32,000 bases of DNA from Ktedonobacterales bacterium (lineage in GTDB: Bacteria; Chloroflexota; Ktedonobacteria; Ktedonobacterales; JADMIN01): NCBI GenBank assembly GCA_030167145.1, contig CP126532.1, forward strand, positions 4,260,001 through 4,292,000, read 5' to 3'. The first letter of the stretch is position 1. Every line of letters starts with the position of its first letter. A model generated the notes under the pieces. The model ran no database searches. It had not been told where the DNA came from and saw only the letters and a list, made by a program, of their open reading frames with translations. Position numbers and translations under genes: made by a program. This document shows, in pieces, positions 2,910 through 32,000 of this stretch.

Positions 2910-4180
2910 ATAGAAGCGTGAATGCTTATCGTGTGTATCTGGGGCTGTCGAGTGCGGAGGCGCTCTTCAGTTCGATGTTCTTTGTCGTCGCGACGGTCTG
3001 GCGCGTGGAGGCGGCCGGATTTAATCCATTGCAACTAGTGCTGGTCGGAACGGTGATGGAGAGCGCGATCTTCGTTTTCGAGATTCCGACGGGGGTGGTG
3101 GCCGACGCCTTCAGCCGGAAGCTTTCGATCATCATTGGTCAGGCGATGATGGGGGTGGCTTTCGTCATGGAGGCGCTGTTCCCGCGCTTCGAAGTAATTC
3201 TGGCGGCCCAGGCGTTCTGGGGCATCGGCTACACCTTCACCAGTGGCGCGACTGAGGCGTGGATTGCGGGCGAGGTGGGCGATGGGAACATCGGCAATAC
3301 CTTCGTGCGCGGCACTCAGGTGGGGCTGATCGGCGCGCTGGCGGGCAGTGTGGTTGGCGCGGGGCTGGCCAGCGTGCGGCTGAACCTGGGCATGTTGTGC
3401 GCGGGCGGGGCGGGTCTGATACTGGCGGTGTGCCTGGTGGTCTTGATGCCGGAGACGGGATATCGCGCGACACCACGCGCGGACCGCTCCACCTGGCAGC
3501 ACATGGGCGATACGCTGCGCGGCGGCCTGCGGATAGTGCGGCTGCGGCCGGCATTGCTGAGCATATTGGGCATTGGCCTGTTCTTTGGCCTCTACAGCGA
3601 GGGCTACGACCGGCTCAGCGACGCGCACCTGCTGCAAGACATGCACATCCCGACGATTGGCAACCTGAGCTATGTGGTGTGGTTCGGCATCATTGACGTT
3701 GGCGCGATGCTGCTGAGCCTGGTGGCGACGGAGGTGGTGCGGCGGCGGGTGAACCTGCGCAGCCATGTTGGCGTGGCGCGGGCGCTCTTCGGCTTGACGG
3801 CGCTGCTCTCGGCTGGGGTGATCGCCTTTGGGCTGTCGCGCGATTTCTACGTGGCGGTGGTGGCGATGTGGGCTATCGCGGTGCTGAGGAAGTCTATCAA
3901 CCCGCTGTATGACGCCTGGATTGCGCAGCATACGGACCCGGCGGTGCGCGCGACGGTGATCTCGCTGGCGGGTCAGGTGGACGCCTTCGGGCAGATCGCT
4001 GGCGGTCCGGCGATTGGCGCGCTGGGCACGGTGCGGGGGCTGCGGGTGGCGCTGGTGACGGCGGGGGCGCTGCTCTCGCCTGCGCTGTTGCTGCTGGCGC
4101 GCACGATTCGTCGCGCGCCGAATGAAACGGCTCCCAGTGAGGCGGCGGACCTGGAAGCGGCGGCGCGTACACGGGTGTAG
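2906..4180 (+). CDS. MFS transporter (drug-efflux-like)
   Basis: 424 aa, hydrophobic throughout with about 12 predicted helices. The MFS loop 2-3 motif-A-like GVVADAFSRKLS is present. The start is TTG 2906 (SD GAGGA 5 nt upstream), with GTG 2918 as an alternative. Confidence 0.8.
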   Translation: MNRSVNAYRVYLGLSSAEALFSSMFFVVATVWRVEAAGFNPLQLVLVGTVMESAIFVFEIPTGVVADAFSRKLSIIIGQAMMGVAFVMEALFPRFEVILAAQAFWGIGYTFTSGATEAWIAGEVGDGNIGNTFVRGTQVGLIGALAGSVVGAGLASVRLNLGMLCAGGAGLILAVCLVVLMPETGYRATPRADRSTWQHMGDTLRGGLRIVRLRPALLSILGIGLFFGLYSEGYDRLSDAHLLQDMHIPTIGNLSYVVWFGIIDVGAMLLSLVATEVVRRRVNLRSHVGVARALFGLTALLSAGVIAFGLSRDFYVAVVAMWAIAVLRKSINPLYDAWIAQHTDPAVRATVISLAGQVDAFGQIAGGPAIGALGTVRGLRVALVTAGALLSPALLLLARTIRRAPNETAPSEAADLEAAARTRV

Positions 4181-5878: not shown

Positions 5879-6028
5879 CGCATGGCGCTCTCTTTCTGGC
5901 GAGCGTGGGTGACTGTGGGCGCTCGGCATTTTGGCTCACACGTTGTACCACACGCGGCGGCGCAGTCGTATAGTGCTGAGGTGGGTACGTCCGGTGTTGC
6001 GTGTACGCGACTGTAGGAGGGTGAGGCG

Positions 6029-11213: not shown

Positions 11214-11289
11214 GATGGTTTTGCCTCCCACAGGTGGGGTTGGGTACACGTCGCGGTGTACCCGATGATTGGGCGTCCAGCGGTGCGAC

Positions 11290-15162: not shown

Positions 15163-15701
15163 TGGTGGCCGAAGTGGCCGGAATGGGCGATTGTGCGCTG
15201 ATGGCAGTTGTTGGAGTTGCCAGCGAGATGCTGGCGGTACAGGTGGAGTTGCCGATTCTGCCGATATTTGCAGGGCAGACAGGAATGTCTGGCCCACCAG
15301 TGGCCGAAATGGCCGATTTGTGCGGTTGGGTGGGGGGAATGACGGGATGTGGCGGGGAATGACGGGAGATGGTGGGAGATTTTTCGCCGTTTTCGCCGCA
15401 ATTTCGCGTTGCACGTATGGTGAGCAATGGCTGATATGGCCGATGTGCGCGAAGGCAGTTGCCGATTCTGCCGATTTTTTGATTGTGCGCGGAAGGTACG
15501 TGGGGTAATGGTGGTGGAAGCTCCGCAGCATGAATGTTACGGGTAATCCTGTACGGACGAGAGCCGCGAAGGGCGAACAGCTAGCTCGTGCGAGGGAGTT
15601 TTCGCCGTTTTCGCCGCGATGTTGAGTGGCCGATATGGCCGATTGTGTGATCGTGCGCATGTGTGTTGCCGGTGTTGAGTTGCCGATTCTGCCGATTTTT
15701 A
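15163..15701. repeat. field of at least 10 stuttered 9-bp doublet repeats (three or more word families)
   Basis: GTTGCCGA-TTCTGCCGA-TTTT occurs at 15248, 15458 and 15678. GTGGCCGA-nATGGCCGA-TTGTGCG variants occur at 15165, 15298, 15425 and 15624. TTTTCGCCG-TTTTCGCCG occurs at 15380 and 15598. GGGAATGACGGGA occurs twice in 15336-15378. Confidence 0.85.
15273..15297 (-). repeat. REP-like element (family R2)
   Basis: GGGCAGACAGGAATGTCTGGCCCAC. The minus strand reads GTGG then the hairpin GCCAGACA-TTCC-TGTCTGCC. Confidence 0.7.
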
Positions 15702-19848: not shown

Positions 19849-20793
19849 CTAGCGGCGGTGGAGGGTAGCTTCGACGACATCGGCCAGCGCCTGGATGAAG
19901 CGTGGGGCGGTGTTGAGCGATTGGGTGCGGGCGAACTGGATGCCGTAGCGTTCGGCCTGCTCGCGGGCGCCGATTTCGATGTCGTAGAGGATTTCGAGGT
20001 GGTCGGCGAGGAATTGCACCGGCGCGATGAGCACGGCGCGTTTGCCCGCAGCGTGTAGCTCTGGCATGAGGTCGGCAAAGTCCGGTTTGAGCCACTCTTC
20101 GGGGGTGTGCCCGGCGCTCTGGTAGCAGAACTGCCATTGGTCAGGAGTGACGTCCGCGCGCTCGGCCACAGCGGCGGCGGTTTCTTTGAGGTGATTGATG
20201 TAGTTGGGTTCGTTGGCGATGACGCGCTTGGGCATGCTGTGCGCGGTGAGCAGGACGGGGATGCTGGCGCGCTCGTCGGCTGGGAACATGGCCAGCGCCT
20301 CGCGGACTCGCTCGGCGACGGCGTCGAGGAAGGCGGGCTGCATGTGCCAATCTTCGGAGATGGCCACGGGCAGGGCGTCGCCATAGCGGTCGGCAACGGC
20401 GTCGCGCAGGGTTTCGACGTAGCCGCGCATGAGAATGGGGGAGTATTGCGGCGACATGATGATGCCAACGATCTGCTGGCTGCCTTCGGCAATCTCTGGC
20501 AGGGCGTCGCGGATGTAAGGAGGCGCGAAGCGCATGCCGACGCCGACTTTGAAGCGCGGGCCGTTGGGGTGGCGGGCGGTAAGTTCGGCTGCGAGCGCGG
20601 CGGCCTGCTCGCGGGTGATGCTCAGCAGCGGTGAGCCGCCGATGAGTTCGTAGCGGCGGCGAAATTCGGTGATGAGGTCGTCGTCGGCGGGATGGCCGCC
20701 ACGGACATTGCGCAGATATTCGGGCATGTCGTCGAGCGTGGCGGGGGAGCCGTAGGTCATGAGCATGACGCCGATGTGTTGCTCTTCGGGCAT
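19849..20793 (-). CDS. hemH: ferrochelatase
   Basis: Start MPEEQHIGVMLMTYGSP. The motifs are YGSP....D...YL...R, GGSPL, LLTAHSMPKRV and YQSAGHTPEEWLKPD. 314 aa. It lies 18 nt upstream of the DUF155 gene. Confidence 0.9.
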   Translation of the reverse strand: MPEEQHIGVMLMTYGSPATLDDMPEYLRNVRGGHPADDDLITEFRRRYELIGGSPLLSITREQAAALAAELTARHPNGPRFKVGVGMRFAPPYIRDALPEIAEGSQQIVGIIMSPQYSPILMRGYVETLRDAVADRYGDALPVAISEDWHMQPAFLDAVAERVREALAMFPADERASIPVLLTAHSMPKRVIANEPNYINHLKETAAAVAERADVTPDQWQFCYQSAGHTPEEWLKPDFADLMPELHAAGKRAVLIAPVQFLADHLEILYDIEIGAREQAERYGIQFARTQSLNTAPRFIQALADVVEATLHRR

Positions 20794-20929
20794 CTGATGT
20801 AGGTCGCTTTCCGTATGGGTGCGTTGGCGGGCTGATAATAATACACACAAGTCCGCATAAGAGTGTAGCGTATGGCGGTGGTGTCTGGCCCATCAGTGGG
20901 CGGTATCGGGTGATGAACGGCAGCGAGCT

Positions 20930-20955
20930 GGCGGTTAAAACCGCGCCTGTATGGC
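20930..20955. repeat. 26-nt motif with palindrome GCGGTTnnAACCGC (copy 2)
   Basis: GGCGGTTAAAACCGCGCCTGTATGGC lies upstream of hemH. Confidence 0.6.
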
Positions 20956-20967
20956 CTGCGGCCGCAA

Positions 20968-20985
20968 AACCCGCCTGCGCGGGTT
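20968..20985 (-). terminator. hairpin with short T-run on the minus strand (weak terminator candidate)
   Basis: The minus strand reads AACCCGC-GCAG-GCGGGTT followed by TTGCGG. The stem is 7 bp and the T-tract is only 4 nt, including stem bases. Confidence 0.3.
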
Positions 20986-21147
20986 CGGGAGAGGGCAGAG
21001 GTGGACGGGGATGAGTACCCCATGGGGAGGCGTGGGGGAGGGGTGATTGTGTGATGACTGGCAGGGCGCTATAATGGGCGCGGGCAAGCGTGACCTGACG
21101 GTGGGCGATGGGCTGGTCCGGCGATGGCAAAGATGTGTGGTCATGAA

Positions 21148-21429
21148 CCCCATGGCTAAAGCCAGGGGCTTGCAGCTCACTCGTTGCCGCGTGTCCGCGT
21201 ATGGCTGCATGACATCAGCCCGGCAAGATTGCTCCTGCCGCGAGTACAACGCTGAAGCGCTGACGTTGGACATTTTACCCTGGCGACGTTTCCCGCCAGG
21301 AACCGCCAATGTTCAGTTGGAAACGTGCTGTTTGAACCGTTTGCTCCGGCGAGCCGGAGTGCCTGAGCACACAACGAGTATAGCACAAGCAAGGGAGAGC
21401 GGCGCTTACCCCAGCCCTAAAGGGCGGGG
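21148..21429 (-). mobile_element. candidate IS200/IS605-derived miniature element (PATE-like) or orphan structured RNA
   Basis: Two similar hairpins with TTTA loops lie in the same orientation. On the minus strand they read GGCCCCGCCC-TTTA-GGGCTGGGG (21409-21429) and AGCCCCTGGC-TTTA-GCCATGGGG (21148-21168). They bracket about 240 nt with at least 4 further stems and an internal TGCTATACT extended -10 (21377-21385, minus). No credible ORF is present. Confidence 0.3.
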
Positions 21430-21447
21430 CCTCCGCGCCACGAAAAA

Positions 21448-22821
21448 GTGAAGATGGATAACGCGCGTAGGGCAGATTTCCAGACTGGCACTGATCTGGC
21501 GCTTTCTGTGCCTGCTGATATGGGGGCGATGCGGCGCGAGTGTGAGCGGTTGCGGCAGCGGAACGCGGAGCTTGAGGAGCAGGCGCGGACGCTGAGCATG
21601 TTGCAGGAGATGGTGAGCACAGTTGCGTCGGAACTGCGGCTGGATCTGTTGCCGCGCCAGATGGCGGTGGCGGCGCTACGGCTGACGGGTGCGGAGGCGT
21701 GCGCGGTGTATCTGGCGGATGGCGCGGGGGCGCTGGTGGCGAGTGCGGTGGAGACGGGTCAATCGGCGGCGGATAGCGGTATTTTCGCGCTGCTGGATCC
21801 GGCGGCGGAGTCGCGACCGGGTAGATATGCTGATGGGGCTGAGCATACGGAGGATGAGGTGCGGATGGAGCTGGGGACGGGTCTGGCGGGTTGGGTGGCA
21901 GAGCAGGCGGAGTTGGTGTTGGTGGCCGATCTGGAGCACGACCCGCGCTTTGCGCCGGAGACGTTTGCGCCGGATGCGGGGGTGCTGGGGGCGCGGCCAA
22001 GCGCGCTGCTGGCGATGCCGGTGGTCTGCGCGGATCTGGTGCTGGGGGTGGTGGAGGTGGCGTATCTGCGCGCAGGGGCGGCGTTCGACGCGAGCGGGGT
22101 GGAGTTGATTCGCACGCTGGCGATGCAGGCGGCGCCAGCGATTGCCAACGCACAGTTGTATCAGCGGTTGCGGCGCGAACGTGAGCGGATGCTGGGGGCG
22201 CAGGAAGATGAGCACGAGCAACTGGCGCAGGAGATGCGAAATGGGGTGGGGCGGAAGCTGGCGCGGCTGGTGATGCAGATCGAGCTGGCGGAGCATTTGG
22301 CGCGGCAGGAGCCGGAGAAGGTGGTGGGCGAATTGCGGGCAGTGCGGCAGACGGCGCTGGTGGCGACGCGCGAGTTGCGACAGATGCTGTTTGCGCTGCG
22401 GCCGTTGGCGCTGGAGACGGAGCATGGTGGGCTGGTGACGGCGCTGGAAACGTATCTGTTGCGCTTTCGCGGTGGCGCAGGGCCAGAGATGAGTCTGCGG
22501 GCTGAGTACGCGCGGCGGTTGCCGCACGAGGCCGAGGCGGCGGCGTTCGCGGTGCTGCGGGAGGCGATTGCGAATGTGCTGAACCACGCGAACGCGCAGA
22601 ACTGCTGGGTCGAGATTCGTGAGTACCCTGATAAGGTGGTGGCGGCGGTGCGCGATGATGGCGATGGTTTCGATATGCGCGCGGTGCAGGCGGAGTATGA
22701 GCGGAGCGGGCACTGGGGGTTGCTGAGCATGATGGAGCGGGCGGCAAGTGTGTCGGCGAAGCTGACGATTGCCTCACAGCCGGGCAAGGGTACGATATTG
22801 TCGGTGGAGCTTCCTCGTTGA
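21448..22821 (+). CDS. GAF-domain sensor histidine kinase (HisKA_3/NarX-LiaS type) with degenerate H-box
   Basis: 457 aa with an N-terminal coiled-coil and a GAF-like region (GTGLAGWVAEQAELVLVADLEHDPRF). The dimerisation/H-box is EHEQLAQEMRNGVGRKLA. The HATPase_c motifs are N-box LREAIANVLNHANA, G1 RDDGDGFD and G2 GHWGLLSMMERA...GKGT. The start is GTG 21448 or ATG 21454. Confidence 0.85.
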   Translation: MKMDNARRADFQTGTDLALSVPADMGAMRRECERLRQRNAELEEQARTLSMLQEMVSTVASELRLDLLPRQMAVAALRLTGAEACAVYLADGAGALVASAVETGQSAADSGIFALLDPAAESRPGRYADGAEHTEDEVRMELGTGLAGWVAEQAELVLVADLEHDPRFAPETFAPDAGVLGARPSALLAMPVVCADLVLGVVEVAYLRAGAAFDASGVELIRTLAMQAAPAIANAQLYQRLRRERERMLGAQEDEHEQLAQEMRNGVGRKLARLVMQIELAEHLARQEPEKVVGELRAVRQTALVATRELRQMLFALRPLALETEHGGLVTALETYLLRFRGGAGPEMSLRAEYARRLPHEAEAAAFAVLREAIANVLNHANAQNCWVEIREYPDKVVAAVRDDGDGFDMRAVQAEYERSGHWGLLSMMERAASVSAKLTIASQPGKGTILSVELPR

Positions 22822-22847
22822 CCTGTTTAACGGGCCTATGCTACACT
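22818..22847 (+). promoter_or_regulatory. extended -10 promoter candidate upstream of the ferredoxin-like gene
   Basis: TTGACC (22818-22823), 18-nt spacer ending in TGC, TACACT (22842-22847). It overlaps the kinase stop codon. The implied leader to GTG 23027 is about 170 nt. Confidence 0.5.
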
Positions 22848-23026
22848 GGCTTGTAGTGTGTCTTCTGCTCTGCTGTGTGCGATGGGTGCGCCTGTGTTCT
22901 GGCGGATGAGCGCGCGATGTGGTCGTGCGCGGGCCGAAGCGATGGGCGCGTGCATGTTGCGCTAGCGGTAGCTGGGTCGCCGGTGGGGCGTTGCTCCACA
23001 CTCAAAAAGAGACAGGAAGTGCGTCA

Positions 23027-23359
23027 GTGCCAAAGGTTACATTCGTGAATGAGGGCCGCACCGTGGAGGTGGAGGCCGGCACGTCGGTGCGCTATGCGGC
23101 GCTCGAGAATGATATTCCGCTGTATTGTATGTGGTTTGGTTTGTCGAAGCTGGCCAATTGCCATGGCAATGGCTTGTGCTGGACGGATCGGGTGCGCGTG
23201 TCGCCAGCGTCGGCGGTGAATCCACGGACGCCGCTGGAGAAGACGATGAATCAGATCGGCACGTTCCCGAAGAATCGCAGCCCGCAGACGCGGCTGGGGT
23301 GCCAGGCGCTGGTCTATGAGGATTGCGAAGTGTATACGCGGTGCAAGCCAAAGCGGTAG
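23027..23359 (+). CDS. plant-type [2Fe-2S] ferredoxin-fold protein with non-canonical ligand set
   Basis: Start GTG 23027 (VPKVTFVNEGRTVEVEAGTSVRYAALENDIPLY), with GGAAG about 8 nt upstream. The cluster loop reads NCHGNGLCWTD in place of the canonical NCGGxGxCGTC, and the fourth Cys is retained in RLGCQALV. 110 aa. Confidence 0.6.
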   Translation: MPKVTFVNEGRTVEVEAGTSVRYAALENDIPLYCMWFGLSKLANCHGNGLCWTDRVRVSPASAVNPRTPLEKTMNQIGTFPKNRSPQTRLGCQALVYEDCEVYTRCKPKR

Positions 23360-23480
23360 AGTGTGGCACACGGCTGTGCTAAGCGAGATGAGATGTGTTG
23401 CGCTCGCGCGTGGGTCCGCTGTGAAGTGGATGGGCGCGCGGATTGTGTTGGGTTTGCTGACTGAGTAGGAGAGAAGTGGT

Positions 23481-23705
23481 ATGCGTCTTGATCGCATTTT
23501 CAGCGAGGGTGAGGCGCAGGTGGCCTTGCGTAGGTTGGGATACGACGTGCGCGAGGCTGAGGGGCGTCCGGGCTTTTTTGAGCTGTCGCACGCCAACCTG
23601 GGGGGCCAGCGGACGATGACCGCCGACCAGATGATGTATTTCGCCGAAGGGTCGGCCCTGGCGGATCAACTGGCGCGGGGATTGCCGTCGCGCGAGCCTG
23701 CGTAG
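23481..23705 (+). CDS. hypothetical small protein
   Basis: 74-aa ORF with AGGAGA 8 nt upstream of the ATG and no motif I recognise. Confidence 0.45.
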   Translation: MRLDRIFSEGEAQVALRRLGYDVREAEGRPGFFELSHANLGGQRTMTADQMMYFAEGSALADQLARGLPSREPA

Positions 23706-23846
23706 GCGCGCGGAACGCCGTGGGCGCACGCCGTGCGCCCCTACGGGGGACGAATGCCGTGTGTCGCCGCGAGCGTGGCCCTTGCCCTGCTGAAATGCGT
23801 TGCGCGCCGTCTGGCGCTGTGGCGTCGTTTCAGGAGGGCATTTTTC

Positions 23847-25139
23847 ATGGGTATGTTGCCTGCTCGTGTGGCGCGGTATCGCGCCTTTGCCAGCGAAGGT
23901 GGTCCGCGCGATTTCGTGCAGGATGTGGCATCAGTGCAGCCGGAACCATCGGGGCAGCCGGAGCCGTCTAGAGAGCCGTCAGAGCCGGTGGCGCTGGACC
24001 CCGAACGCCAGCGGCTGGCGAAGCGGTATGCGCGGCAGCGGCAGGCGCTTTCATTGGTGAACCTGGGCATCAGTGCGGTGGTGATTCTGGTGCTGCTCTT
24101 CGGCGGGGTGAGCTTTGCGCTGCGTGATACGCTGGCGGGCGTGAGCGGGTGGGAGCCGTTGCCATCCTGGCAGCCGTTGCGGGTGGGCGCGTATTTTCTG
24201 GTGCTGTTCGCGGCGACGCTGGTGATTGGATTGCCGCTGTCGTATTACAGTGGGTTTGTGCTGCCGCATCGCTATGGCCTCTCGACGGAATCATTTGGTG
24301 GGTGGGTGCTGGATTTTGTCAAGGGATTGGCGATTTCGCTGCCGATTGAGTTGCTGGCGGTGCTGTTTGTGTATGCGCTGCTGGCCGTGGCGCCGGAGAG
24401 CTGGTGGCTGTGGACGGGGCTGGCGATGCTGTTCGTGACGGTGATTCTGGCGCAGTTGGCTCCGGTGCTATTGGTGCCGATTTTCTATAAGCTGACGCCG
24501 CTACCCGATGGGGATGTGCGGCGGCGGGCGTTGCGGCTGGCGGAGCAGGCGCGGACGCGGGTGCGCGGTATCTACTCGATGAATCTGAGCGCGAAGACGA
24601 CGGCGGCGAATGCGATGGTGATGGGGCTAGGCACGACGCGGCGGATCATCGTGGGGGATACGCTGCTGGAGCACTATACGCCGGATGAGATCGAGGTGGT
24701 GCTGGCGCATGAGTTGGGGCATCAGGTCCACAACGATATTCCGAAGCTGATCGCGGTGGAGAGCGTGACGACGCTGGGCGGGCTGTATCTGGTGAATGTG
24801 GTGCTACATGCGGTGGTGGGGCGTGTGCCAGAGTATCACGGGCTGGCGGATCCGGCGACGATGCCGCTGGTGGCGGCGGCGCTGGGGGTGTTCGCGCTGG
24901 TGCTGTTGCCGCTGACGAATGGTTTCAGCCGGTGGGTGGAGCGGCAGGCGGATGTGTATGCGCTGCAATCTACGGGCAAGGCGCCGGCGTTCATCAGCGC
25001 GATGACGCGGCTGGCGAATCAGAATCTGGCGGAGGTGGAACCGTCGCCGGTAATCGAGTTTTTGCTGTACAATCATCCGTCCATTGGGCGGCGGCTGGCG
25101 CTGGCGCGGGAGTGGGAGGCGGGGGAGTCGCGGCCATAA
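23847..25139 (+). CDS. M48 family (Ste24/HtpX-like) zinc metalloprotease
   Basis: I chose the start MGMLPARV (ATG 23847) because AGGAGG sits 9 nt upstream. It has multiple N-terminal TM helices, HELGHQVHND (HExxH) and a NAMVMGLGTTRRIIVGDTLL block. 430 aa. Confidence 0.85.
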   Translation: MGMLPARVARYRAFASEGGPRDFVQDVASVQPEPSGQPEPSREPSEPVALDPERQRLAKRYARQRQALSLVNLGISAVVILVLLFGGVSFALRDTLAGVSGWEPLPSWQPLRVGAYFLVLFAATLVIGLPLSYYSGFVLPHRYGLSTESFGGWVLDFVKGLAISLPIELLAVLFVYALLAVAPESWWLWTGLAMLFVTVILAQLAPVLLVPIFYKLTPLPDGDVRRRALRLAEQARTRVRGIYSMNLSAKTTAANAMVMGLGTTRRIIVGDTLLEHYTPDEIEVVLAHELGHQVHNDIPKLIAVESVTTLGGLYLVNVVLHAVVGRVPEYHGLADPATMPLVAAALGVFALVLLPLTNGFSRWVERQADVYALQSTGKAPAFISAMTRLANQNLAEVEPSPVIEFLLYNHPSIGRRLALAREWEAGESRP

Positions 25140-25217
25140 ATGGCCGGAGCAGGGTGGCCTGTTCGGAGGGTAACGGCGAGTTCGCATAGACCTATGTCAG
25201 TATGCTAGGGGAGTTCG

Positions 25218-25538
25218 ATGGTGAAAATAGGGGCTACAGTTATCGCTTGCATGGGATTGGCATCATTACTCCTCTCGCCGTATTTAGCCTTTCGCGGCTA
25301 TCTGCGTACTCGCGACCGCTGGCCACGTGCGCGAAAAATATGGACTCGATACGGTGGCGCCTTTGCGCTGGCTTCGATAGCATTCCTCATTAATGGAATC
25401 GATTTGATGTCACTCATACCTGTGGAAGCGAGAGTTATTGTGTCTTTGGCGGCCTTTCTCCTCATTATAGTGGCTGGTCTCGTGTATGTCTGGGGGGCAT
25501 ACTATCAAGGCCTAGACAAGCTGCTGTTTGAGGATTAG
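25218..25538 (+). CDS. small membrane protein (first gene of the low-GC island)
   Basis: 106 aa with 3 hydrophobic segments. AGGGGAG lies 6 nt upstream. The codon composition is low-GC, unlike the upstream genes. Confidence 0.5.
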   Translation: MVKIGATVIACMGLASLLLSPYLAFRGYLRTRDRWPRARKIWTRYGGAFALASIAFLINGIDLMSLIPVEARVIVSLAAFLLIIVAGLVYVWGAYYQGLDKLLFED

Positions 25539-25598
25539 GCGAATCTTACTCCAGAGTACTGACACAGATTGCGGCGTTGGGGAATGATAATCCTCCGC

Positions 25599-26045
25599 TT
25601 ATTCGCTATACATGCCGAAATCCTGGCTGATTTGCGTCAAACGAGCGAGGGCCTCGCGCCTGCTGGTGTCGCGCTTACGCTTATAGTCCATGAGGTCGCT
25701 GACAAGGATGCGGCGATGGGTTCCGGTCATCACGTAGGGAATCTCGCCACGTTCGAGTACCTTGATGAGGTAGGGGCGTGACACGTTGAGGATCTCTGCC
25801 GCCTCCTGTGTAGTGAGTTCTTTGTTGATAGGCACGACGGCGACCGCCTGATTATGCGCCAAATGTGGGATTACCTGTCTGAGCAGCCGCACAATTGATG
25901 GCGGCAGTTCTGTCGCTTCTCCGGCAGCGCTTACAAGCTTGGGGGCGTGTTCCTCCGCGAGAATGCTCTTTACTTCATCGAGTTGCGATTGCTCACCCTC
26001 GGCTGCGATAACTGGCCCCTGCTCGTGAGTTCTGTTGGCGCCCAT
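25599..26045 (-). CDS. excisionase-family (MerR-superfamily) helix-turn-helix DNA-binding protein
   Basis: I chose the start MGANRTHEQ (ATG 26045..26043) because GGAAGGGAG lies upstream. LTTQEAAEILNVSRPYLIKVLERGEIPYVMTGTHRRILVSDLMDYKRKR fits the excisionase-type HTH seen in Xis proteins and in antitoxins of PIN-type TA pairs. 148 aa. Confidence 0.7.
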   Translation of the reverse strand: MGANRTHEQGPVIAAEGEQSQLDEVKSILAEEHAPKLVSAAGEATELPPSIVRLLRQVIPHLAHNQAVAVVPINKELTTQEAAEILNVSRPYLIKVLERGEIPYVMTGTHRRILVSDLMDYKRKRDTSRREALARLTQISQDFGMYSE

Positions 26046-26077
26046 ATGTGTCGCTCCCTTCCGCTTTCGCGCAGTGT

Positions 26078-26107
26078 AGTATAGCACAATTTTTGTATTA
26101 TCCGCAA
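26078..26107 (-). promoter_or_regulatory. extended -10 promoter candidate for the HTH gene
   Basis: The minus strand reads TTGCGG (26107-26102), an 18-nt spacer ending in TGC, then TATACT (26083-26078). The leader to ATG 26045 is about 26 nt and contains the SD. Confidence 0.55.
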
Positions 26108-26302
26108 TATGTGAAATAAGCGAAATGCCGACGTGAGGTGCCGTTAACCGTTGCTCATGCTTTGCTATTGCCTCGTTATTTGTTTTGCTATCACGCCGTG
26201 AATACAATCACCATCTTGGCCTGACCCAGGCGCTGCTTTTCTTGTTTCTCTTGACTCTCCGTTACAAAATTTCAAGGGTGCTGACATATTTTGTGATAGG
26301 TA

Positions 26303-26331
26303 TTGACAGCTTGTACCAAATTGCGTATAGT
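26303..26331 (+). promoter_or_regulatory. near-consensus sigma70 promoter of the island operon
   Basis: TTGACA (26303-26308), exactly 17 nt of spacer, TATAGT (26326-26331). Confidence 0.7.
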
Positions 26332-26390
26332 TTCGCTCAGTGAGGTTGTTTTGGCTGAAAGTGTGTGGGACGCCTGTTGAGGTAAGGCCC

Positions 26391-26533
26391 GTGTCCCCGT
26401 GTCCCCGTGTCCCCGTGTCCCCGTGTCCCCGTGTCCCCGTGTCCCCGTGTCCCCGTGTCCCCGTGTCCCCGTGTCCCCGTGTCCCCGTGTCCCCGTGTCC
26501 CCGTGTCCCCGTGTCCCCGTGTCCCCGTGTCCC
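26391..26533 (+). repeat. perfect tandem repeat (GTGTCCCC) x about 18
   Basis: 143 nt with an 8-nt period and no variant unit visible. It lies between the promoter and the SD/ATG of the 26562 gene. The complement is (GGGGACAC)n. Confidence 0.95.
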
Positions 26534-26561
26534 TTTACTATAGTTAAGGAGCAAGTCCACG

Positions 26562-27662
26562 ATGGGTCGCGTACAACGTCAACTACTTCCCGTTACTCTA
26601 GTAACAACCCTGGCTTTGGTGCTGTGTGTGCTTAATTTAGCCAGCGGCGGATTTAGTGCTCATGCACAGCCATCAGTACCGTGCATTGCGGGCACAGATA
26701 CTGGTTGCCCGACCAGTGGCAACTGGTATGGTTCTAGCTTGGATTGGATGATCACCGCAACAAACGACTGGTTTCAGAAGAAAGATTTCTGGTGCGGAGT
26801 GGCAGTAATCCAAGCAATGGAGAGATATGATTGGCTTAAGTATGATGGAAACGCAAGCCCTACATACGAATCGCAGTATTCGCTAGGCTATAACACGGCG
26901 AATCACGATCCATACAATGGCTTGCTCAATACGTCTGCGGCGATTAGTCCTTGGGGACAGGCTGACCCAGGCCTTAATGGTCCTGGCCCCAAATTTGTCG
27001 CTGATATCGCCGCTGATGGAGGGTTGGATCCTCGTGGTCTTGCATGGGGAATTTGGGATGTGACACCCAACGGCTACTACTTCCACAATTGGATCTACGA
27101 AACAGGAAACACCACTGCAGGAGCCAAGTCAGCAACAAACGACTTTGCCGCCGATTATGGGCCGCACAACGGATTGAACGATCCCATCGCGGTGGCAATC
27201 AACACAGGCATGCATTTCTTCGTAATCGATGGGGTCTGGGCCTCAAGCGATCCTTCCGCAGGAGGCGACACACTTTACGACATTGATACGTGGGATCCAT
27301 GGCTCAACCAGGCAGGTGCGTCTTTTGATGGAACCTATCCCTACAACACGTCGATCAATGAAGTCTGGTCATTGTCCGACTGGCTAGGGCAGACAAATCA
27401 AGGTCCGACCTGGATGTGGCAAAATCCCTACAACACAGCAAACAAGTATGATCCTGATCCTAGCACTGGCCTATTCGGTCACCCGGGATCCCCCTACTAC
27501 GATCAGCCGCTGCCCGCGCCTAACAATCAGACGGGCCACTGGAACACGTACTGGGTCACCATTGAGCAAGATGAAGTGACTTCCTGTCAGGCAAGCCCAA
27601 ACATTGCATACGATCAGAACGGTAATCCGTCACCGCACAACGGAGTTGTGTACTGTCCGTGA
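26562..27662 (+). CDS. secreted protein, candidate C39-like (papain-fold) cysteine peptidase
   Basis: AAGGAG (26546-26551) lies upstream of the ATG. It has a signal peptide (LLPVTLVTTLALVLCVLNLASGGFSAHA). The candidate catalytic residues are Q-x5-C in QKKDFWCGVAVIQAM, His in TGMHFFVIDGV and Asp in DIDTWDPW, in the order and spacing of C39-like peptidases. The C-terminal part is W/Y/N/P-rich, with Cys pairs near both ends. Confidence 0.55.
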   Translation: MGRVQRQLLPVTLVTTLALVLCVLNLASGGFSAHAQPSVPCIAGTDTGCPTSGNWYGSSLDWMITATNDWFQKKDFWCGVAVIQAMERYDWLKYDGNASPTYESQYSLGYNTANHDPYNGLLNTSAAISPWGQADPGLNGPGPKFVADIAADGGLDPRGLAWGIWDVTPNGYYFHNWIYETGNTTAGAKSATNDFAADYGPHNGLNDPIAVAINTGMHFFVIDGVWASSDPSAGGDTLYDIDTWDPWLNQAGASFDGTYPYNTSINEVWSLSDWLGQTNQGPTWMWQNPYNTANKYDPDPSTGLFGHPGSPYYDQPLPAPNNQTGHWNTYWVTIEQDEVTSCQASPNIAYDQNGNPSPHNGVVYCP

Positions 27663-27737
27663 TTAGGAGGGGCCAAGTTTGCCCCACCGCATTGCCCCTG
27701 ATTGTTATGGCACCATTGTGCTCGAAAGGATAGTGGG

Positions 27738-28559
27738 ATGTCACGCAACAGAAGCCGCGCCTACTCGTGGCAGGCATCACATTCTACGCGACCCAGTAAG
27801 TTTACGTATGCAACTGTACTTGGCGTGATGGTACTCCTTGTGGGAGTTCTGATGTGGCATGCCAACGGGGCGGTTCCCGCAACTAATACCGCTGCCGGTG
27901 TAGCTACAGCACCTTACAGGGGAAAACCACTCTCGTGGTGCGGATCGGTTAACCAGCCAGAGTGTCCTACAGTCGATCCAGGCTGGGTTACGCTAAACTC
28001 GAACCTACCCGATGCTGCGTCCATTGCAATTGCCAGGGCGCGAGAATTCAAGTCTTTGCAGTCGCGATACGGTTACACCGCGCTTGATTTGCCAACGCTC
28101 GTACATGCCTTTGGGGCGCACACAGGGATCGGTTATTACGATGATGATCATTGGGTAGTGTCTGTGCGAAATGCGTCAGGACGAGAATGTGGTATCTTTG
28201 ATTTTGTCTATGATAGGGCAAATCATCGCATCCGCTTCTCTTCGTTCGGCTTGATATTGCCACAGGATCCCCGCTCAACCAAACCGTTTCCTTATATCTC
28301 ACCCGCATCAGCTATGGCGGAACTTCAGAGCGAGCGTAAGTTAGCTCCGCTTTCCGGTGCCCAGCCAGAACTAGTCTTTTTCCCAATCGATCCGCGATAT
28401 CGCGATCCTTCTTCCCCGGTGAAATGGTTTGGAGGAGGTGAGGCACCTGATGATCCAACATGGCTCATCGTAGGATCAGACGGACAGAGCTATTTTGTTG
28501 GGCATGATATGCGTGTCCATAGTCTTCAGGAAGTGCCAATCGCTGTGGGCCAACCATAG
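27738..28559 (+). CDS. N-terminally membrane-anchored extracytoplasmic protein, unknown function (possible tandem PepSY-like folds)
   Basis: ATG 27738 with AAGGA 7 nt upstream. It has a basic N-terminus and then a TM helix (TYATVLGVMVLLVGVLMW). Two segments show a helix followed by strands (AASIAIARAREF...HWVVSVRNASGRECGIFDFVYD and SPASAMAELQSE...TWLIVGSDGQSYFVGHDMRV). 273 aa. Confidence 0.55.
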   Translation: MSRNRSRAYSWQASHSTRPSKFTYATVLGVMVLLVGVLMWHANGAVPATNTAAGVATAPYRGKPLSWCGSVNQPECPTVDPGWVTLNSNLPDAASIAIARAREFKSLQSRYGYTALDLPTLVHAFGAHTGIGYYDDDHWVVSVRNASGRECGIFDFVYDRANHRIRFSSFGLILPQDPRSTKPFPYISPASAMAELQSERKLAPLSGAQPELVFFPIDPRYRDPSSPVKWFGGGEAPDDPTWLIVGSDGQSYFVGHDMRVHSLQEVPIAVGQP

Positions 28560-28606
28560 GTAGCCGCTAGCCAAGACAAGTCGGATCAATTCCGATGTGC
28601 CCATCT

Positions 28607-28648
28607 CCATGCATGCAACCTCCATTTCTATGATGGTTACATGCATGG
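28607..28648 (+). promoter_or_regulatory. strong intercistronic stem-loop
   Basis: CCATGCATGcAACC-14 nt loop-GGTTaCATGCATGG pairs 13 bp with one mismatch. It lies between the second and third island genes, and no T-tract follows. Confidence 0.4.
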
Positions 28649-28714
28649 ATCTTAGTTAAACGGTAAAGAGATGCAAAGATCCCTTTGTGCTCAAGAGGTA
28701 AAACGGAGCAGGCG

Positions 28715-29263
28715 ATGAGCAACAAGTTGAGATGGATATGGGTTGTGCCGTTGTTGGCGCTGCTGACGCTGCTGGCGGGGTGTGGCCAATCATCAGGAAG
28801 TGTGGCAGGTCTGCCGTCTGGTTGGTCATGGCATCATGACGATCACTATCCGTTTGATGCGCCTGTTCCGCCGCAATGGAGTGTGGCGAGTTTCACCAAT
28901 ACGCAATCTCCCGGCGATGAGTGTGAATATACGGTCAATTTCTTCCCGCCAGGAAGGGAGGCTATTTCAGAACGCGCGGCCAGTGAGCTTGAGCCTGAAC
29001 TCATTGCAATAACGGTGAAAGGAAGTTGCCCACTGGCGGATCCATCTCATGACACGGATTGGACGCCGGAGGCGGGGAGAATCAACGTAGGAGGGACGAT
29101 GTGTACGGTCTATGATCGGGCACCTGAGCCGGATCGGATGGTGGTGGCGACGTTTGGTGGCCATCAATATCTCTTCTACATGCAGTCTCCCGCCAACACA
29201 GCGCAGCGAGACGAAATGCTCTTCAAGCAAATGCTGGAGCGTTTCAGATATACGGGCAAATGA
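28715..29263 (+). CDS. lipoprotein, unknown function
   Basis: ATG 28715 with GGAG 7 nt upstream. The signal peptide carries a lipobox (LLTLLAGC). 182 aa with no recognised domain. Confidence 0.65.
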   Translation: MSNKLRWIWVVPLLALLTLLAGCGQSSGSVAGLPSGWSWHHDDHYPFDAPVPPQWSVASFTNTQSPGDECEYTVNFFPPGREAISERAASELEPELIAITVKGSCPLADPSHDTDWTPEAGRINVGGTMCTVYDRAPEPDRMVVATFGGHQYLFYMQSPANTAQRDEMLFKQMLERFRYTGK

Positions 29264-29284
29264 GCTAGCGGGCTACACGGCAAG

Positions 29285-30922
29285 CTACTCCATGGATCCG
29301 TGGACGAGCGCGCCGCCGATGAGGGTGGCGGCGACGGGGAGGGCGGCAAGACGGTCGGGCGGGATGGTGAAGGGGTCTTCGGCGAGGATGACGAGGTCGG
29401 CGAGTTTGCCGGGGGCGAGCGACCCCTGATGCGCTTCCTGGCCGCCTGCGCGGGCCGCGCCAACGGTGTAGCCCCAGAGCGCCTGGGCGACGGTGAGCGC
29501 CTGGTCTGGCAGCCAGGGCGTGCGGTCGGGGGTGGTGTCGTCGCGGCGGTTGACGGCGGCATGGAGCACGCGCAGCGGGTCGCAGGTGTCTACGGGGATG
29601 TCGGAGCCGAGGGCGAGCGGGATGCCTGCCTGGCGCAACGTCTGGTAGGCGTAGGCGCGGCGGTGCCGCGCGCCCCAGTGGTGTTCGGCGGTGTCGCGGT
29701 CGGCGACGGCGTGGAAGGGCTGGACGGAGGCGGCGACGCCGAGGCGGGCCATGCGCTGGATGTCTTCGGGGGCGGCAAGCTGGACGTGCTCCAGGCGGAA
29801 ACGGCGAGCGGCGAGGGGGTCGGAAGTTGCGTCGGCGGTGGCGTGGGCGCGGTGGGTGAGGTAGGTTTCGATGCCATCGAGCGCGGTGCGCACGGCACGG
29901 TCACCGATGGCGTGGATGGCGACGCCGATGCCGCTGGATGCCGCCTCGGCGACGGTGCGGGCGGTGTCTTCGTCGCTCATGGTGAGCAGCCCACGGCTGG
30001 ATTGGCCTTCGTAAGGGTCGAGCATGGCGGCGGTCTGCGCGCCCAATGCGCCATCCATGAAGAGCTTGATACCGGCGAAGCGCAGGTAGTCGTCGCCGAA
30101 ACCTGCTTGCAGGCCGAGCCGGACGGCATCGGCGAGCGATTGGCGGGGGATGTAGAGCAGCATACGCGGGCTGAGCGCGCCTTCGCGGTGGAGGCGCTGC
30201 ATCAGGCGGAGGCTGCGGTCGCCCTCGATGTTGTGGACGCCGGTGACGCCACGGGCGCGCAGTTCGGCCAGCACGCGGCGCAGTTCGGCCAGCACGGTGT
30301 CGTCGTCGGGTGGGACGATGACCTGCTCGACGAGATCGGTGGCGTCCTCGAAGAGCATGCCGTCTGGCTCGCCGTCGGGTCCGCGTCCTATACGCCCGGC
30401 GGGCGGGTCGGGGGTGGTGGCGTCTATATTCGCGGCGCGCAGGGCGGCGGAGTTGACCCAGAGGGCGTGATAGGAGTGGTCGCGCAGGGCGACGGGGTGC
30501 TTGGGGGCAGCGACATCGAGGCTGGCTTTGGTGGGGAATGCGCCGCCGGGCCAGTGGTTCTTGTTCCAGCTATGGCCCTGTATCCATGCGCCGTTGGGGG
30601 TATGTTCCGCGCGCTGGCGCACACGGGCGGCAGCTTCGTCTTCGGAGGGAATGGCGCGCAGGTCTACGGAGATGCGGCCTTCGGCGTACATCATCAGGTG
30701 GGTGTGGGCGTCTATGAAGCCGGGGAGGACGGTCTTGCCGCCGAGGTTGAGGGTGTCGGTGAGGGGGCCGGCGAAGGCGCGGATGTCGGCGTCGTCGCCC
30801 ACGGCAAGGATGCGCCCGGAGGAGCGGTCCACGGCGAGCGCGGTGGCGCGCGGCTGGTCGGGGTTCATCGTGTGGATGGAGCCGCTGAGCAGCAAGAGGA
30901 TGGGGCGGCGACCGGTGAGCAT
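29285..30922 (-). CDS. amidohydrolase (Amidohydro_3 / YtcJ-like metal-dependent hydrolase)
   Basis: 545 aa. The motifs are LPGFIDAHTHL, VAIHAIGDRAV, FRLEHVQ and ALGSDIPV. Confidence 0.85.
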   Translation of the reverse strand: MLTGRRPILLLLSGSIHTMNPDQPRATALAVDRSSGRILAVGDDADIRAFAGPLTDTLNLGGKTVLPGFIDAHTHLMMYAEGRISVDLRAIPSEDEAAARVRQRAEHTPNGAWIQGHSWNKNHWPGGAFPTKASLDVAAPKHPVALRDHSYHALWVNSAALRAANIDATTPDPPAGRIGRGPDGEPDGMLFEDATDLVEQVIVPPDDDTVLAELRRVLAELRARGVTGVHNIEGDRSLRLMQRLHREGALSPRMLLYIPRQSLADAVRLGLQAGFGDDYLRFAGIKLFMDGALGAQTAAMLDPYEGQSSRGLLTMSDEDTARTVAEAASSGIGVAIHAIGDRAVRTALDGIETYLTHRAHATADATSDPLAARRFRLEHVQLAAPEDIQRMARLGVAASVQPFHAVADRDTAEHHWGARHRRAYAYQTLRQAGIPLALGSDIPVDTCDPLRVLHAAVNRRDDTTPDRTPWLPDQALTVAQALWGYTVGAARAGGQEAHQGSLAPGKLADLVILAEDPFTIPPDRLAALPVAATLIGGALVHGSME

Positions 30923-31078
30923 GGTGATGACGCTGGCTTTCTTGGCGCGCCGCGTGGGCGGCGCTCAGACACTTCGGGGTGAGCATATTCTACCGTATGA
31001 ATAGGTCCCGGCCAATGTGCGGAGAGAGCGGGAGCAAAAAGGGTGGTTGCATGCGAACGGGCGTCCGCCGGATTGTGC

Positions 31079-31103
31079 GGGCGTCCGCCGGACGCCCCTA
31101 CGA
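31079..31103 (-). repeat. REP-like element (family R1) with adjacent half copy
   Basis: GGGCGTCCgccGGACGCCCCTACGA is preceded by the half copy GGGCGTCCGCCGGA at 31059-31072. It lies in the divergent intergenic region. Confidence 0.85.
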
Positions 31104-31138
31104 ACGTGGGGACGTGGTGGACAACTGCCCTCGCTTTC

Positions 31139-31167
31139 TTGCGCGGGTTGGGGGCGCATGTTACACT
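31139..31167 (+). promoter_or_regulatory. extended -10 promoter candidate for the MDR dehydrogenase gene
   Basis: TTGCGC (31139-31144), 17-nt spacer ending in TGT, TACACT (31162-31167). Confidence 0.5.
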
Positions 31168-31207
31168 GGGCGGCAGTATGCTGGGCAAGGTGGAGGCGAA
31201 TCATCCG

Positions 31208-32000
31208 ATGTGGAGCGCGTATCTGAAGATGAGTCCGGTGCGTGTGGCGGCGACACGCACACTCGGCACGGTTTCGCGCCGTGCGTATTACGGGCCGCTG
31301 GCGCCGCTGCGCGCGGGCAGAATCCGCAAGGCGACGCCGCCCGGCAGGCGATGGGTGCGGGTGCGCAACAGTGTGGCGGGGATCGCGGGCGCGGATGTGG
31401 CGCGGGTATATCTGGACGAGGATGGGCGCATTGCGTTGGCGGCGCTGCCCCGGCAGAAGCGCATCTACCTGGGGAGCGAGGTGGCGGGCGAGGTGGTGGA
31501 TGTGGGGCCGGAGGTGGAGTTCTTGCGCGTGGGCGACCGTGTGGCGTATCAACTGGACGTGTGCTGCGCGACGCGGGATATCGAGCCGCCGTGTGAGCAG
31601 TGCGCGGCGGGGAACTATCGTCTCTGTGCGAATCGCTATATGTCTGGGCCGCGCGGGGTGGGCGGTGGCTGGGGTGATGAAATGCTGCTGCATGAGCGGC
31701 AGCTTTTTCTCGTGCCAGACACGCTGGCGGATGAGCAGGCAGCGCTGCTGGAACCAGCGGCGATGGCGCTGCATACGGCGCTGCACCATCTACCACAGCC
31801 AGGCGAGCAGGTGCTGGTGATCGGCGCGGGCACGACGGGCCTGCTGACGATTCAGGCGCTGCGGGTGCTGGCGCCCAGCGCGACGATTGCCGTGCTGGCG
31901 CGGTATCCGTTCCAGGCGAAGATGGCGTGGCAGATGGGGGCGAGCGCACTGCTGGACCCGAAGAAGGACACGGAGGATGTGGTGTCCGCGACGGGCGCAC
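31208..32000 (+). CDS. medium-chain dehydrogenase/reductase (zinc-ADH fold) family protein, 3'-truncated by the window end
   Basis: This ORF runs off the window, is absent from the ORF track, and I translated it by hand. It shows a GroES-like domain, the structural-zinc loop PPCEQCAAGNYRLC, and the Rossmann motif VLVIGAGTTGLLTIQ. I prefer the start ATG 31208 (MWSAYL, GGTGGAGG 10 nt upstream). ATG 31178 is an alternative that would be nearly leaderless. Confidence 0.75.
   Translation, partial: MWSAYLKMSPVRVAATRTLGTVSRRAYYGPLAPLRAGRIRKATPPGRRWVRVRNSVAGIAGADVARVYLDEDGRIALAALPRQKRIYLGSEVAGEVVDVGPEVEFLRVGDRVAYQLDVCCATRDIEPPCEQCAAGNYRLCANRYMSGPRGVGGGWGDEMLLHERQLFLVPDTLADEQAALLEPAAMALHTALHHLPQPGEQVLVIGAGTTGLLTIQALRVLAPSATIAVLARYPFQAKMAWQMGASALLDPKKDTEDVVSATGA

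Follow-up and report, generated by a model that had tools for sequence, protein, structure and literature searches.

Short tandem repeats near the 5' ends of genes have been described in several groups of bacteria, and they offer the nearest comparison for the element considered here, a perfect octanucleotide array in the leader of a three-gene operon (genes A, B and C) of a Ktedonobacterales bacterium. The array is contained in a stretch of 32,000 nt (hereafter the window), which covers positions 4,260,001 to 4,292,000 of CP126532.1, a 5.07 Mb contig of a Ktedonobacterales metagenome-assembled genome. In Haemophilus influenzae, the (ATCTTTC)n repeats of hmw1A and hmw2A are transcribed in the 5' untranslated region (UTR), with expression being inversely related to copy number (PMC12721329). 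In Moraxella catarrhalis, an (AGAT)n tract is found upstream of uspA2, and the octamer GACTGTTT is located 25 bp upstream of gor in 2-17 copies among strains (PMC7302503). Heptamers capable of forming G-quadruplexes (G4), namely GGGNATC and GGGGA(C/T)T, have been reported from Xanthomonas and Nostoc within 50 bp upstream of open reading frames (ORFs), on the non-coding strand (PMC4692102). Long repeats with units of 5-11 nt have also been catalogued in large GC-rich genomes of free-living bacteria, without an assigned function (PMC4692102 and work cited there). The earlier note on this DNA, made from the letters of the window, held that no regulatory element of this form had been described, a statement that has to be withdrawn given that transcribed or upstream repeats of 4-8 nt which tune expression are already on record (PMC12721329; PMC7302503).

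By analogy, the hmw loci of H. influenzae are the closest functional counterpart. In hmw and in the window alike, a unit of 7-8 nt is repeated more than ten times between promoter and start codon, in the 5' UTR (for the window, transcription of the array is deduced), the operon comprises three genes for an exported protein and has two paralogous loci, copy number differs between strains (for the octamer, those with the homologous array of L124 and L126), and the sense strand is pyrimidine-rich. In hmw, however, the repeats pair as left arm with a G-rich right arm in a long hairpin that RNase III cleaves, whereas the leader of the window has no complementary G-rich arm and folds no better than shuffles (z +1.36), its array being predicted as unstructured with only the last ~3 units paired to the Shine-Dalgarno (SD) sequence and AUG of gene A. 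Alleles with fewer than 11 repeats never occur at hmw, unlike in the octamer family, where two-copy alleles are present, and the host here is a free-living, soil-type member of the Chloroflexota rather than a human pathogen. With M. catarrhalis the array shares a location upstream of an ORF, a range of 2-18 copies among strains and the occurrence of an 8-nt unit, while unit sequences and hosts differ. An effect on expression has been measured for hmw, and graded, rather than on/off, effects on mRNA have been reported for M. catarrhalis through a transcriptional mechanism that is incompletely understood, whereas for the octamer array such an effect is a proposal.

Other described systems share fewer properties with the locus. 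The array resembles the Xanthomonas and Nostoc heptamers in its G-tract design and in its position, having tandem G-runs placed just upstream of a gene. Cyanobacterial short tandemly repeated repetitive (STRR) heptamers are a further point of comparison, and the octamer array occurs in many cyanobacteria and Chloroflexota. The Xanthomonas and Nostoc heptamers, in contrast, are dispersed in hundreds per genome with a preference for four units, whereas here a single array of 18 units was found in ~55 kb, and the homologs of this array in related operons carry no G-tracts. Phase variation through homopolymers (poly-G/C in 5' coding regions of Neisseria, Campylobacter and Haemophilus) has a parallel in two relatives of the operon, which have C9 and C8 tracts directly after a good SD sequence and start codon, 1 nt out of frame. 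The gene in the window differs from this design in that its repeat is placed in the leader and is not tied to gene A by reading frame, since an in-frame TAG intervenes. As a mechanistic analogy only, the Rho-dependent attenuators of the mgtA, corA and rho leaders (PMC12360218) are comparable in that a long, weakly structured leader with C exceeding G is untranslated or contains only an upstream ORF, and in that the operon is located in DNA that looks horizontally acquired. Unlike the array, these attenuators are unique sequences controlled by ligands, small RNAs or upstream ORFs.

The leader array and repeats in related operons

Judged from its letters and from its relatives, the tract is an expanded, slippage-prone octanucleotide microsatellite in the leader, which is real, non-random and, from the comparison with relatives, probably hypervariable. 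Tandem Repeats Finder (TRF) reported a period of 8 with 18.2 copies, 100% matches and a score of 292, by far the strongest repeat of the window, and GTGTCCCC was counted 19 times against 1.02 expected, a count reached by 0/100 shuffles. The 18 perfect octamers announced in the earlier note hold in the CCCGTGTC register. In the register chosen there (26391-26533, 143 nt), the array consists of 17 full GTGTCCCC units and a terminal GTGTCCC, and it reaches 3 nt (CCC) further to the left. The sense strand is composed of C74 G36 T36 A0, the template strand reading (GGGGACAC)n. The array is situated in a gap of 516 nt between a divergent gene of the HTH_17 (helix-turn-helix) family and the operon, and it ends 28 nt before the ATG of gene A. 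Over 5,497 nt the window is matched without a difference by a short-read contig from a separate data set (L002, SRR22113990). This contig opens within the array, of which it includes 30 nt, as is expected of de Bruijn assemblies, which break at repeats; the array is thus not an artefact of a single assembly. A contig from the Joint Genome Institute (JGI), L001, is also identical to the window, and it was the only one returned when a second assembly of the array was looked up through the HTH_17 protein.

Upstream of the array, a predicted sigma-70-type promoter (P1) matches the consensus at 11 of 12 positions, which makes it the best site within 25000-29500 and a match reached by 0/345 shuffled upstream regions of 660 nt. 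Among 51 distinct orthologous loci, a match of at least 10/12 was found 70-350 nt upstream of gene A in 19 and of 11/12 in nine, with a perfect TTGACA in 16, while 6% of shuffles reached 10/12 and none reached 11/12. Near-consensus promoters precede the octamers not only in the window but also at the orthologous loci L124/L126 and L128. The promoter, the GTG 8 bases after its -10 element, the TAG at 26541-26543, the AAGGAG and the ATG of gene A are all present as the earlier note had read them. No A-containing hexamers occur in the array; since it lacks A and leaves only 28 nt to the ATG, transcripts of gene A should include it. Transcription from the conserved promoter can reach gene A only by way of the array, and we infer that it starts upstream of the repeat.

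Related octamers of the form GTG(T/A)CC(T/C)C were detected at the equivalent leader position in a subset of the orthologous operons, so that arrays upstream of gene A homologs do exist in other genomes, where the earlier note had proposed to look for them. The window has 18.25 copies of GTGTCCCC, whereas GTGTCCTC occurs in 2 copies at both L128 and L123 and in at least 10.4 copies at L129, a contig that begins in the array. The unit GTGACCTC is present in 9.9 copies at L126/L148 and in 2.4 copies at L124, the protein of which is identical to that of L126. L124 and L126 share 99.5-99.8% identity in their flanks, with a difference of six units (48 nt) between the arrays, which shows directly that the length of the homologous array can shift within a short evolutionary time; this difference between close strains was seen for the homologous array, the window's own being represented by one long assembly. 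When the octamer-bearing leaders were aligned, the octamer block was the sole invariant and alignable stretch. Each array is internally perfect while the unit differs by lineage, as would be expected if arrays repeatedly contract and expand again. In a neighbour-joining tree, the array-bearing loci are grouped in a basal grade with ~45-55% protein identity, next to a large crown clade without arrays. The comparison indicates that the array arose, through repeated expansion and contraction, from a short GTG(T/A)CC(T/C)C motif that is found in tandem at the equivalent place in orthologous operons.

The leader of L123 (60-200) has some peculiarities of its own. The gene caller places the protein start at a GTG inside the two octamers, with an ORF that is continuous into the gene, and the SD-spaced position aligned to the ATG of the window is ATC/ACG, which is not a standard start codon. 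If the GTG of the array were used, octamer copy number would act there by frameshift. The same segment gave the only significantly stable fold among six leaders (z -2.68).

Repeats of other kinds have also been found at the 5' ends of this operon family. The leader of L178 (303-690) contains a perfect 13-mer, (GCCCGTTTGCCCT) in 6.3 copies at 417-498, between a TTGACA-17-TATCCT promoter and an ATG at ~684; its sense strand is C-rich and its template strand has G3 tracts (G4Hunter 1.15). The paralogous operon of the same genome (L122, OJF49_000929; 5936-6010) has no octamer array. Its promoter, TTGACA-17-TATTAT, is ~124 nt upstream, and a C9 tract (5962-5970) lies between a good SD sequence with ATG 5952 and the called GTG start at 6001. 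This ATG is 1 nt out of the signal-peptide frame, and deletion of one C gives MRFTPPLRYVQIRIGSVFAVVFALAF..., a normal signal peptide; the arrangement resembles a homopolymer switch between on and off, here in its off setting. An ortholog, L182 (2172-2400), follows the design of the paralog, with TTGACA-17-TATACT, an SD sequence and GTG 2272 followed by a C8 tract (2284-2291); the start is 1 nt out of the signal-peptide frame, which C7 would restore. Perfect homopolymers eight or more long were counted, together with perfect arrays whose unit of four or more nt is repeated at least four times. Leader zones of -300..+60, 17.7 kb in all, contained 7 such repeats and the other 231 kb contained 4, against 0.31 expected in the zones (Poisson 4e-8, ~20-fold). 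Perfect repeats outside these zones include (GAGAGCAC) x4 just after gene A at L199 (1634-1665), (GCGAGATTGG) x4 some 800 nt upstream of gene A at L207 (822-861), and, at the L122 locus, a C10 tract (11246-11255) located between two genes further downstream.

Copy number, expression and competing explanations

The reading that agrees best with these observations is the one proposed in the earlier note, a contingency locus driven by slippage, given that orthologous arrays range from 2 to 18 copies, that near-identical strains have 2.4 and 9.9 copies, and that other repeats occur at the 5' ends of the family. Replication slippage would alter copy number, which would set the level of operon expression, and whether the tract does act as a contingency or 'rheostat' locus in this sense is, in our judgement, evenly balanced. 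The tract is perfect and long enough for slippage, it stands between the promoter and the SD sequence and ATG with an inferred start of transcription ahead of it, and the products of the operon carry export signals, a class typically placed under phase variation (a signal peptide on A, a membrane anchor on B and the lipobox LLAGC on C). The likelihoods given below for the loading of Rho, for template G4, for an upstream ORF and for an HTH_17 operator overlap with the one given here.

How copy number would be converted into expression is a matter for a leading guess of low confidence, which is that it would act through the length of a Rho loading site. Rho utilization (Rut) sites have C exceeding G, little structure and an optimum of 60-90 nt, and both 5' UTRs and horizontally acquired DNA often contain them (PMC12360218). 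Measured against this description, the array has a suitable composition and length, with 146 nt, no A and a C/G ratio of 2.06, while the leader minus the array has a ratio of 0.43; the leader of 262 nt folds no better than shuffles, its array being unpaired in the centroid. The array alone would render the leader an A-free, weakly structured RNA with C exceeding G. Tract length would extend from 16 nt at 2 copies, below the Rut optimum, to 146 nt at 18 copies, above it, and long alleles would be attenuated by Rho whereas short alleles would be expressed. We know of no Rut site with a length set by a microsatellite, nor of any described conversion of repeat number into expression through Rho-site length or a G4 roadblock.

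Pairing between the array and the start region is a different matter. The only persistent structure of the leader is the predicted hairpin at its 3' end (Table 1), and in minimum free energy folds the units pair with the start region in 5/6 leaders, where one U-A to C-G change appeared compensatory. Opening the initiation region is predicted to cost 11 kcal/mol with 1 copy and 18 kcal/mol with 3, after which there is no further change up to 26 copies. An octamer acting as anti-SD or anti-start element was rejected, as cognate duplexes did not exceed non-cognate, background or shuffled pairings in strength and the opening energy is flat above three copies. Pairing of the last 2-3 units with the SD sequence and AUG may nevertheless make a minor contribution.

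Several observations weigh against a regulatory role of copy number. The exact count of 18 in the window derives from one long-contig assembly. The baseline of the repeat enrichment is mostly coding DNA, and with all background matches placed in the ~35 kb of intergenic DNA the probability becomes roughly 0.02. Predicted accessibility of the SD sequence and AUG is constant above three copies, and duplexes at least as good were obtained for 0.15-0.33 of 39 background initiation regions and for 0.07-0.34 of shuffles. For the Rut proposal it is composition that speaks, and the leaders of array-free orthologs, compared as a sign of a family-wide Rho attenuator, were not C-rich, meaning that Rho control is not a family trait. 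The octamer is also frequent elsewhere. In a scan of species-representative genomes, (GTGTCCCC) in three or more copies was found at more than 119 loci of many phyla among the matches listed, in no common gene context, and its expansion could be neutral. Finally, Rehm et al. saw no regulatory role for comparable G-rich heptamer repeats (PMC4692102).

These points give substance to a neutral explanation, in which the microsatellite is a slippage by-product in an insertion-tolerant leader and the operon is indifferent to copy number. We consider this rather less than probable, though the most serious of the alternatives. The flat predicted accessibility counts in its favour, as does the lack of any RNA structure signal above shuffles, and the unit itself is a common slippage-prone G-tract motif without fixed gene association, which keeps the explanation alive. 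Against it stands the retention of the octamer at the equivalent leader position in deep-branching orthologs, where the flanking leader can no longer be aligned, together with the clustering of three unrelated repeat types at the 5' ends of one operon family and the export of the products. A different possibility is that the template (GGGGACAC)18 forms G-quadruplexes, or the C-rich strand an i-motif, and thereby hinders or modulates RNA polymerase in the manner of the Xanthomonas and Nostoc repeat class. The earlier note was right that the sequence rule for G4 is satisfied, with 18 tracts of four G, 4-nt loops and a G4Hunter score of 1.75; the G-rich strand is antisense and the distance to the ATG agrees with that class, G3 tracts lie on the template strand in the independent 13-mer array of L178 as well, and the orientation of a G4 motif downstream of the transcription start alters transcriptional output in vitro (PMC7341879). 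The homologous arrays, with template units GAGGACAC or GAGGTCAC, have however no run of three or more G and score 0.38, yet they expand to ~10 copies, so that G4 potential belongs to this allele and is not conserved in the lineage. As four tracts are enough for a G4, the number of 18 would be left unexplained, and no dispersed family of such arrays was found in the ~55 kb of genome examined (the window, L001 and L122). On balance, a G4 mechanism is unlikely.

Translation of the repeat, for which the earlier note proposed a VSPCPRVP peptide, would offer another route from copy number to expression. An upstream ORF would start at GTG 26391 or at the leaderless GTG 26340, copy number modulo 3 would set its exit (TAG 26541, TAA 26545, or over the SD sequence and ATG to 26635), and initiation at gene A would be coupled or occluded as ribosomes melt the SD-sequestering hairpin. 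The three frames and their stops were verified in the ORF list (26340..26543, 26407..26547 and 26399..26635), a GAGG is placed 8 nt before the first GTG of the array, purine-rich motifs are found 5-10 nt before it in three relatives (L126, L128 and L123), and the L123 protein was called from a GTG inside the octamers. With the SD sequence and AUG predicted to be paired with the last units and ~18 kcal/mol needed to open them, coupling to an upstream ribosome would matter. The peptide itself did not survive comparison, as every frame of (GTGACCTC)n is interrupted by TGA: no more than 3 codons of the ~10-copy array at L126/L148 are translatable, two-copy alleles give 3-codon ORFs, and neither the peptide nor long-range ribosome traffic is conserved in the orthologs. 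A conserved leader peptide is ruled out by these stop codons. Leaderless initiation at GTG is inefficient in model bacteria, and the hairpin over the SD sequence is not significant against shuffles (z -1.2), which makes regulation by an upstream ORF doubtful to a greater degree than the action of G4. Far more improbable still is the proposal that the direct repeats serve as operators for the divergent HTH_17 protein or another regulator. Direct repeats can serve as binding sites for multimers, and the HTH_17 gene is adjacent and divergent. The array, however, is downstream of the promoter, its 8-bp period sets successive sites on different faces of the helix, and the gene is missing both upstream of the paralogous operon (L122) and at P0013, the one octamer-bearing ortholog locus whose upstream gene was checkable, where the divergent protein of 169 aa is unrelated to it (E 5.4). 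The HTH_17 protein, which the earlier note had put forward as a binder, was thus rejected as not co-conserved with the array.

The occurrence of the octamer in other genomes deserves a fuller description. Among the matches listed, 51 loci belong to cyanobacteria, 16 to Chloroflexota and 15 to actinobacteria, with up to 12 loci per genome. The filamentous cyanobacterium Okeania SIO3B5 has 12 of these and an Oscillochloris metagenome-assembled genome (Chloroflexales) has 10; Nostoc, Symploca and Roseofilum, likewise filamentous cyanobacteria, and Streptomyces, Pyrinomonadaceae and Tepidisphaeraceae are further carriers. Most of the arrays listed have 3-5 copies and the longest, of 15-16.5 copies, are located at contig ends. 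On a crude map of longest ORFs, arrays in intergenic DNA most often follow closely on the end of a gene, the G-rich strand then being the sense strand (32 cases, at a median of 43 nt), and upstream sites occur in both orientations; the unit is stop-free on both strands, which makes the class inside ORFs (77/131) unreliable. A literature search for the octamer string returned only primers.

Should copy number tune expression, the bet-hedging that pathogens practise with surface antigens would have a counterpart in the exported proteins of soil Chloroflexota. To our knowledge, phase variation driven by repeats is known almost only from host-adapted pathogens. A wider proposal, which at present seems improbable, is that an exported-protein operon family of mostly soil-derived uncultured bacteria, with the Ktedonobacterales (Chloroflexota) as its only named member, is under stochastic control by three interchangeable repeat devices: a leader octamer array, a leader 13-mer array and a poly-C tract just after the start codon. 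In the leader versions, the microsatellite would govern how long a C-rich, unstructured tract becomes, and this tract would serve either for adjustable Rho loading or as a G4 obstacle on the template strand. Contingency loci would on this proposal extend to free-living, non-host-associated filamentous bacteria. The host and the variety of repeat devices in one operon family set the locus apart, and homologous arrays of 2-18 copies, near-identical strains that differ and paralogs with poly-C make it a tractable case. Because short-read assemblies stop within such arrays, exactly where genes begin (L002, L125 and L129), metagenomes under-report them.

The operon and other features of the window

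The features of the locus are collected in Table 1. The A-B-C operon is conserved in many metagenome contigs, with a second copy, the paralog L122, in the same genome. The earlier note referred to gene A as a peptidase, a label that is reasonable but tentative. Across 34 homologs the protein has a nearly invariant Cys78 (in NWCG) and an invariant His218, and an AlphaFold2 model with a mean confidence (pLDDT) of 72.7 gave cathepsin L, ZUFSP and UfSP2 as top PDB matches in Foldseek, all of them papain-like, with non-significant E values of 0.2-1. No Pfam family was matched. The product of gene A may tentatively be regarded as a secreted papain-like cysteine peptidase.

Table 1. Positions of the promoter, leader and gene features around the octamer array (numbering of the window).
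Feature	Coordinates	Strand	Evidence or remark
HTH_17 (excisionase-type) gene, divergent	25599..26045	-	Pfam HTH_17, E 1.5e-12; context only
Putative sigma-70-type promoter P1	26303..26331	+	TTGACA 26303-26308, 17-nt spacer, TATAGT 26326-26331; 11/12 match
Predicted transcription start, A26339/G26340	26339..26340	+	8-9 nt after the -10, from spacing; GTG 26340 is the leaderless start of the earlier note
Purine-rich SD-like element GAGGTAAGG	26379..26387	+	sequence, weak evidence; GAGG 8 nt before first array GTG
Perfect octanucleotide microsatellite	26388..26533	+	TRF; 18.25 x CCCGTGTC (= CCC + 17 x GTGTCCCC + GTGTCCC)
Possible upstream ORF through the array	26391..26543	+	GTG 26391 to TAG 26541, 50 codons; frame shared with 26340 ORF and ATG 26562
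Predicted RNA hairpin	26510..26571	+	centroid, -22.5 kcal/mol, z -1.2; last ~3 units pair with SD (CCUU:AAGG) and start region (CCCCGUG:CACG-AU-GGG)
Shine-Dalgarno AAGGAG of gene A	26546..26551	+	sequence; 10 nt before ATG 26562
Gene A, OJF49_004125	26562..27662	+	ORF list; 366 aa, signal peptide, annotated hypothetical
Gene B	27738..28559	+	ORF list; 273 aa (285 aa from TTG 27702), N-terminal membrane anchor; second operon gene, conserved order
Gene C	28715..29263	+	ORF list; 182 aa, lipoprotein signal (LLAGC); third operon gene, conserved order

The operon and its divergent neighbour form a block (25200-29270) of ~52% GC within DNA of ~67% GC. Either acquisition from elsewhere or a gene family of distinct composition probably accounts for it. 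The search for a tRNA or integrase border of the low-GC island gave no tRNA within the window, and a scan of the whole window with Rfam matched no family. The GC skew of the plus strand is strongly positive (+0.2 to +0.37) across the high-GC flanks (20000-25000 and 29300-32000), persists over a minus-strand gene at 29285-30922, and declines to ~0 between 25200 and 29270.

A short ATAGT(TAAG) motif is found 3' of the array in the window (26534-26551, CTATAGTTAAGGAG), at L128 (349-372, GATAGTTAAGAAGAAGGAG) and at L124 (~3905-3912, GCGATAGTCGG). In the window it makes a second TATAGT (26539-26544), identical to the -10 element of P1 and lacking a -35 partner. Two short direct duplications, perfect or nearly so, were also detected in or near coding regions of the window at 30257-30296 and 15330-15367, apparently unrelated to the array; these are a 21-mer in 1.9 copies inside an amidohydrolase gene and a 20-mer in 1.9 copies.

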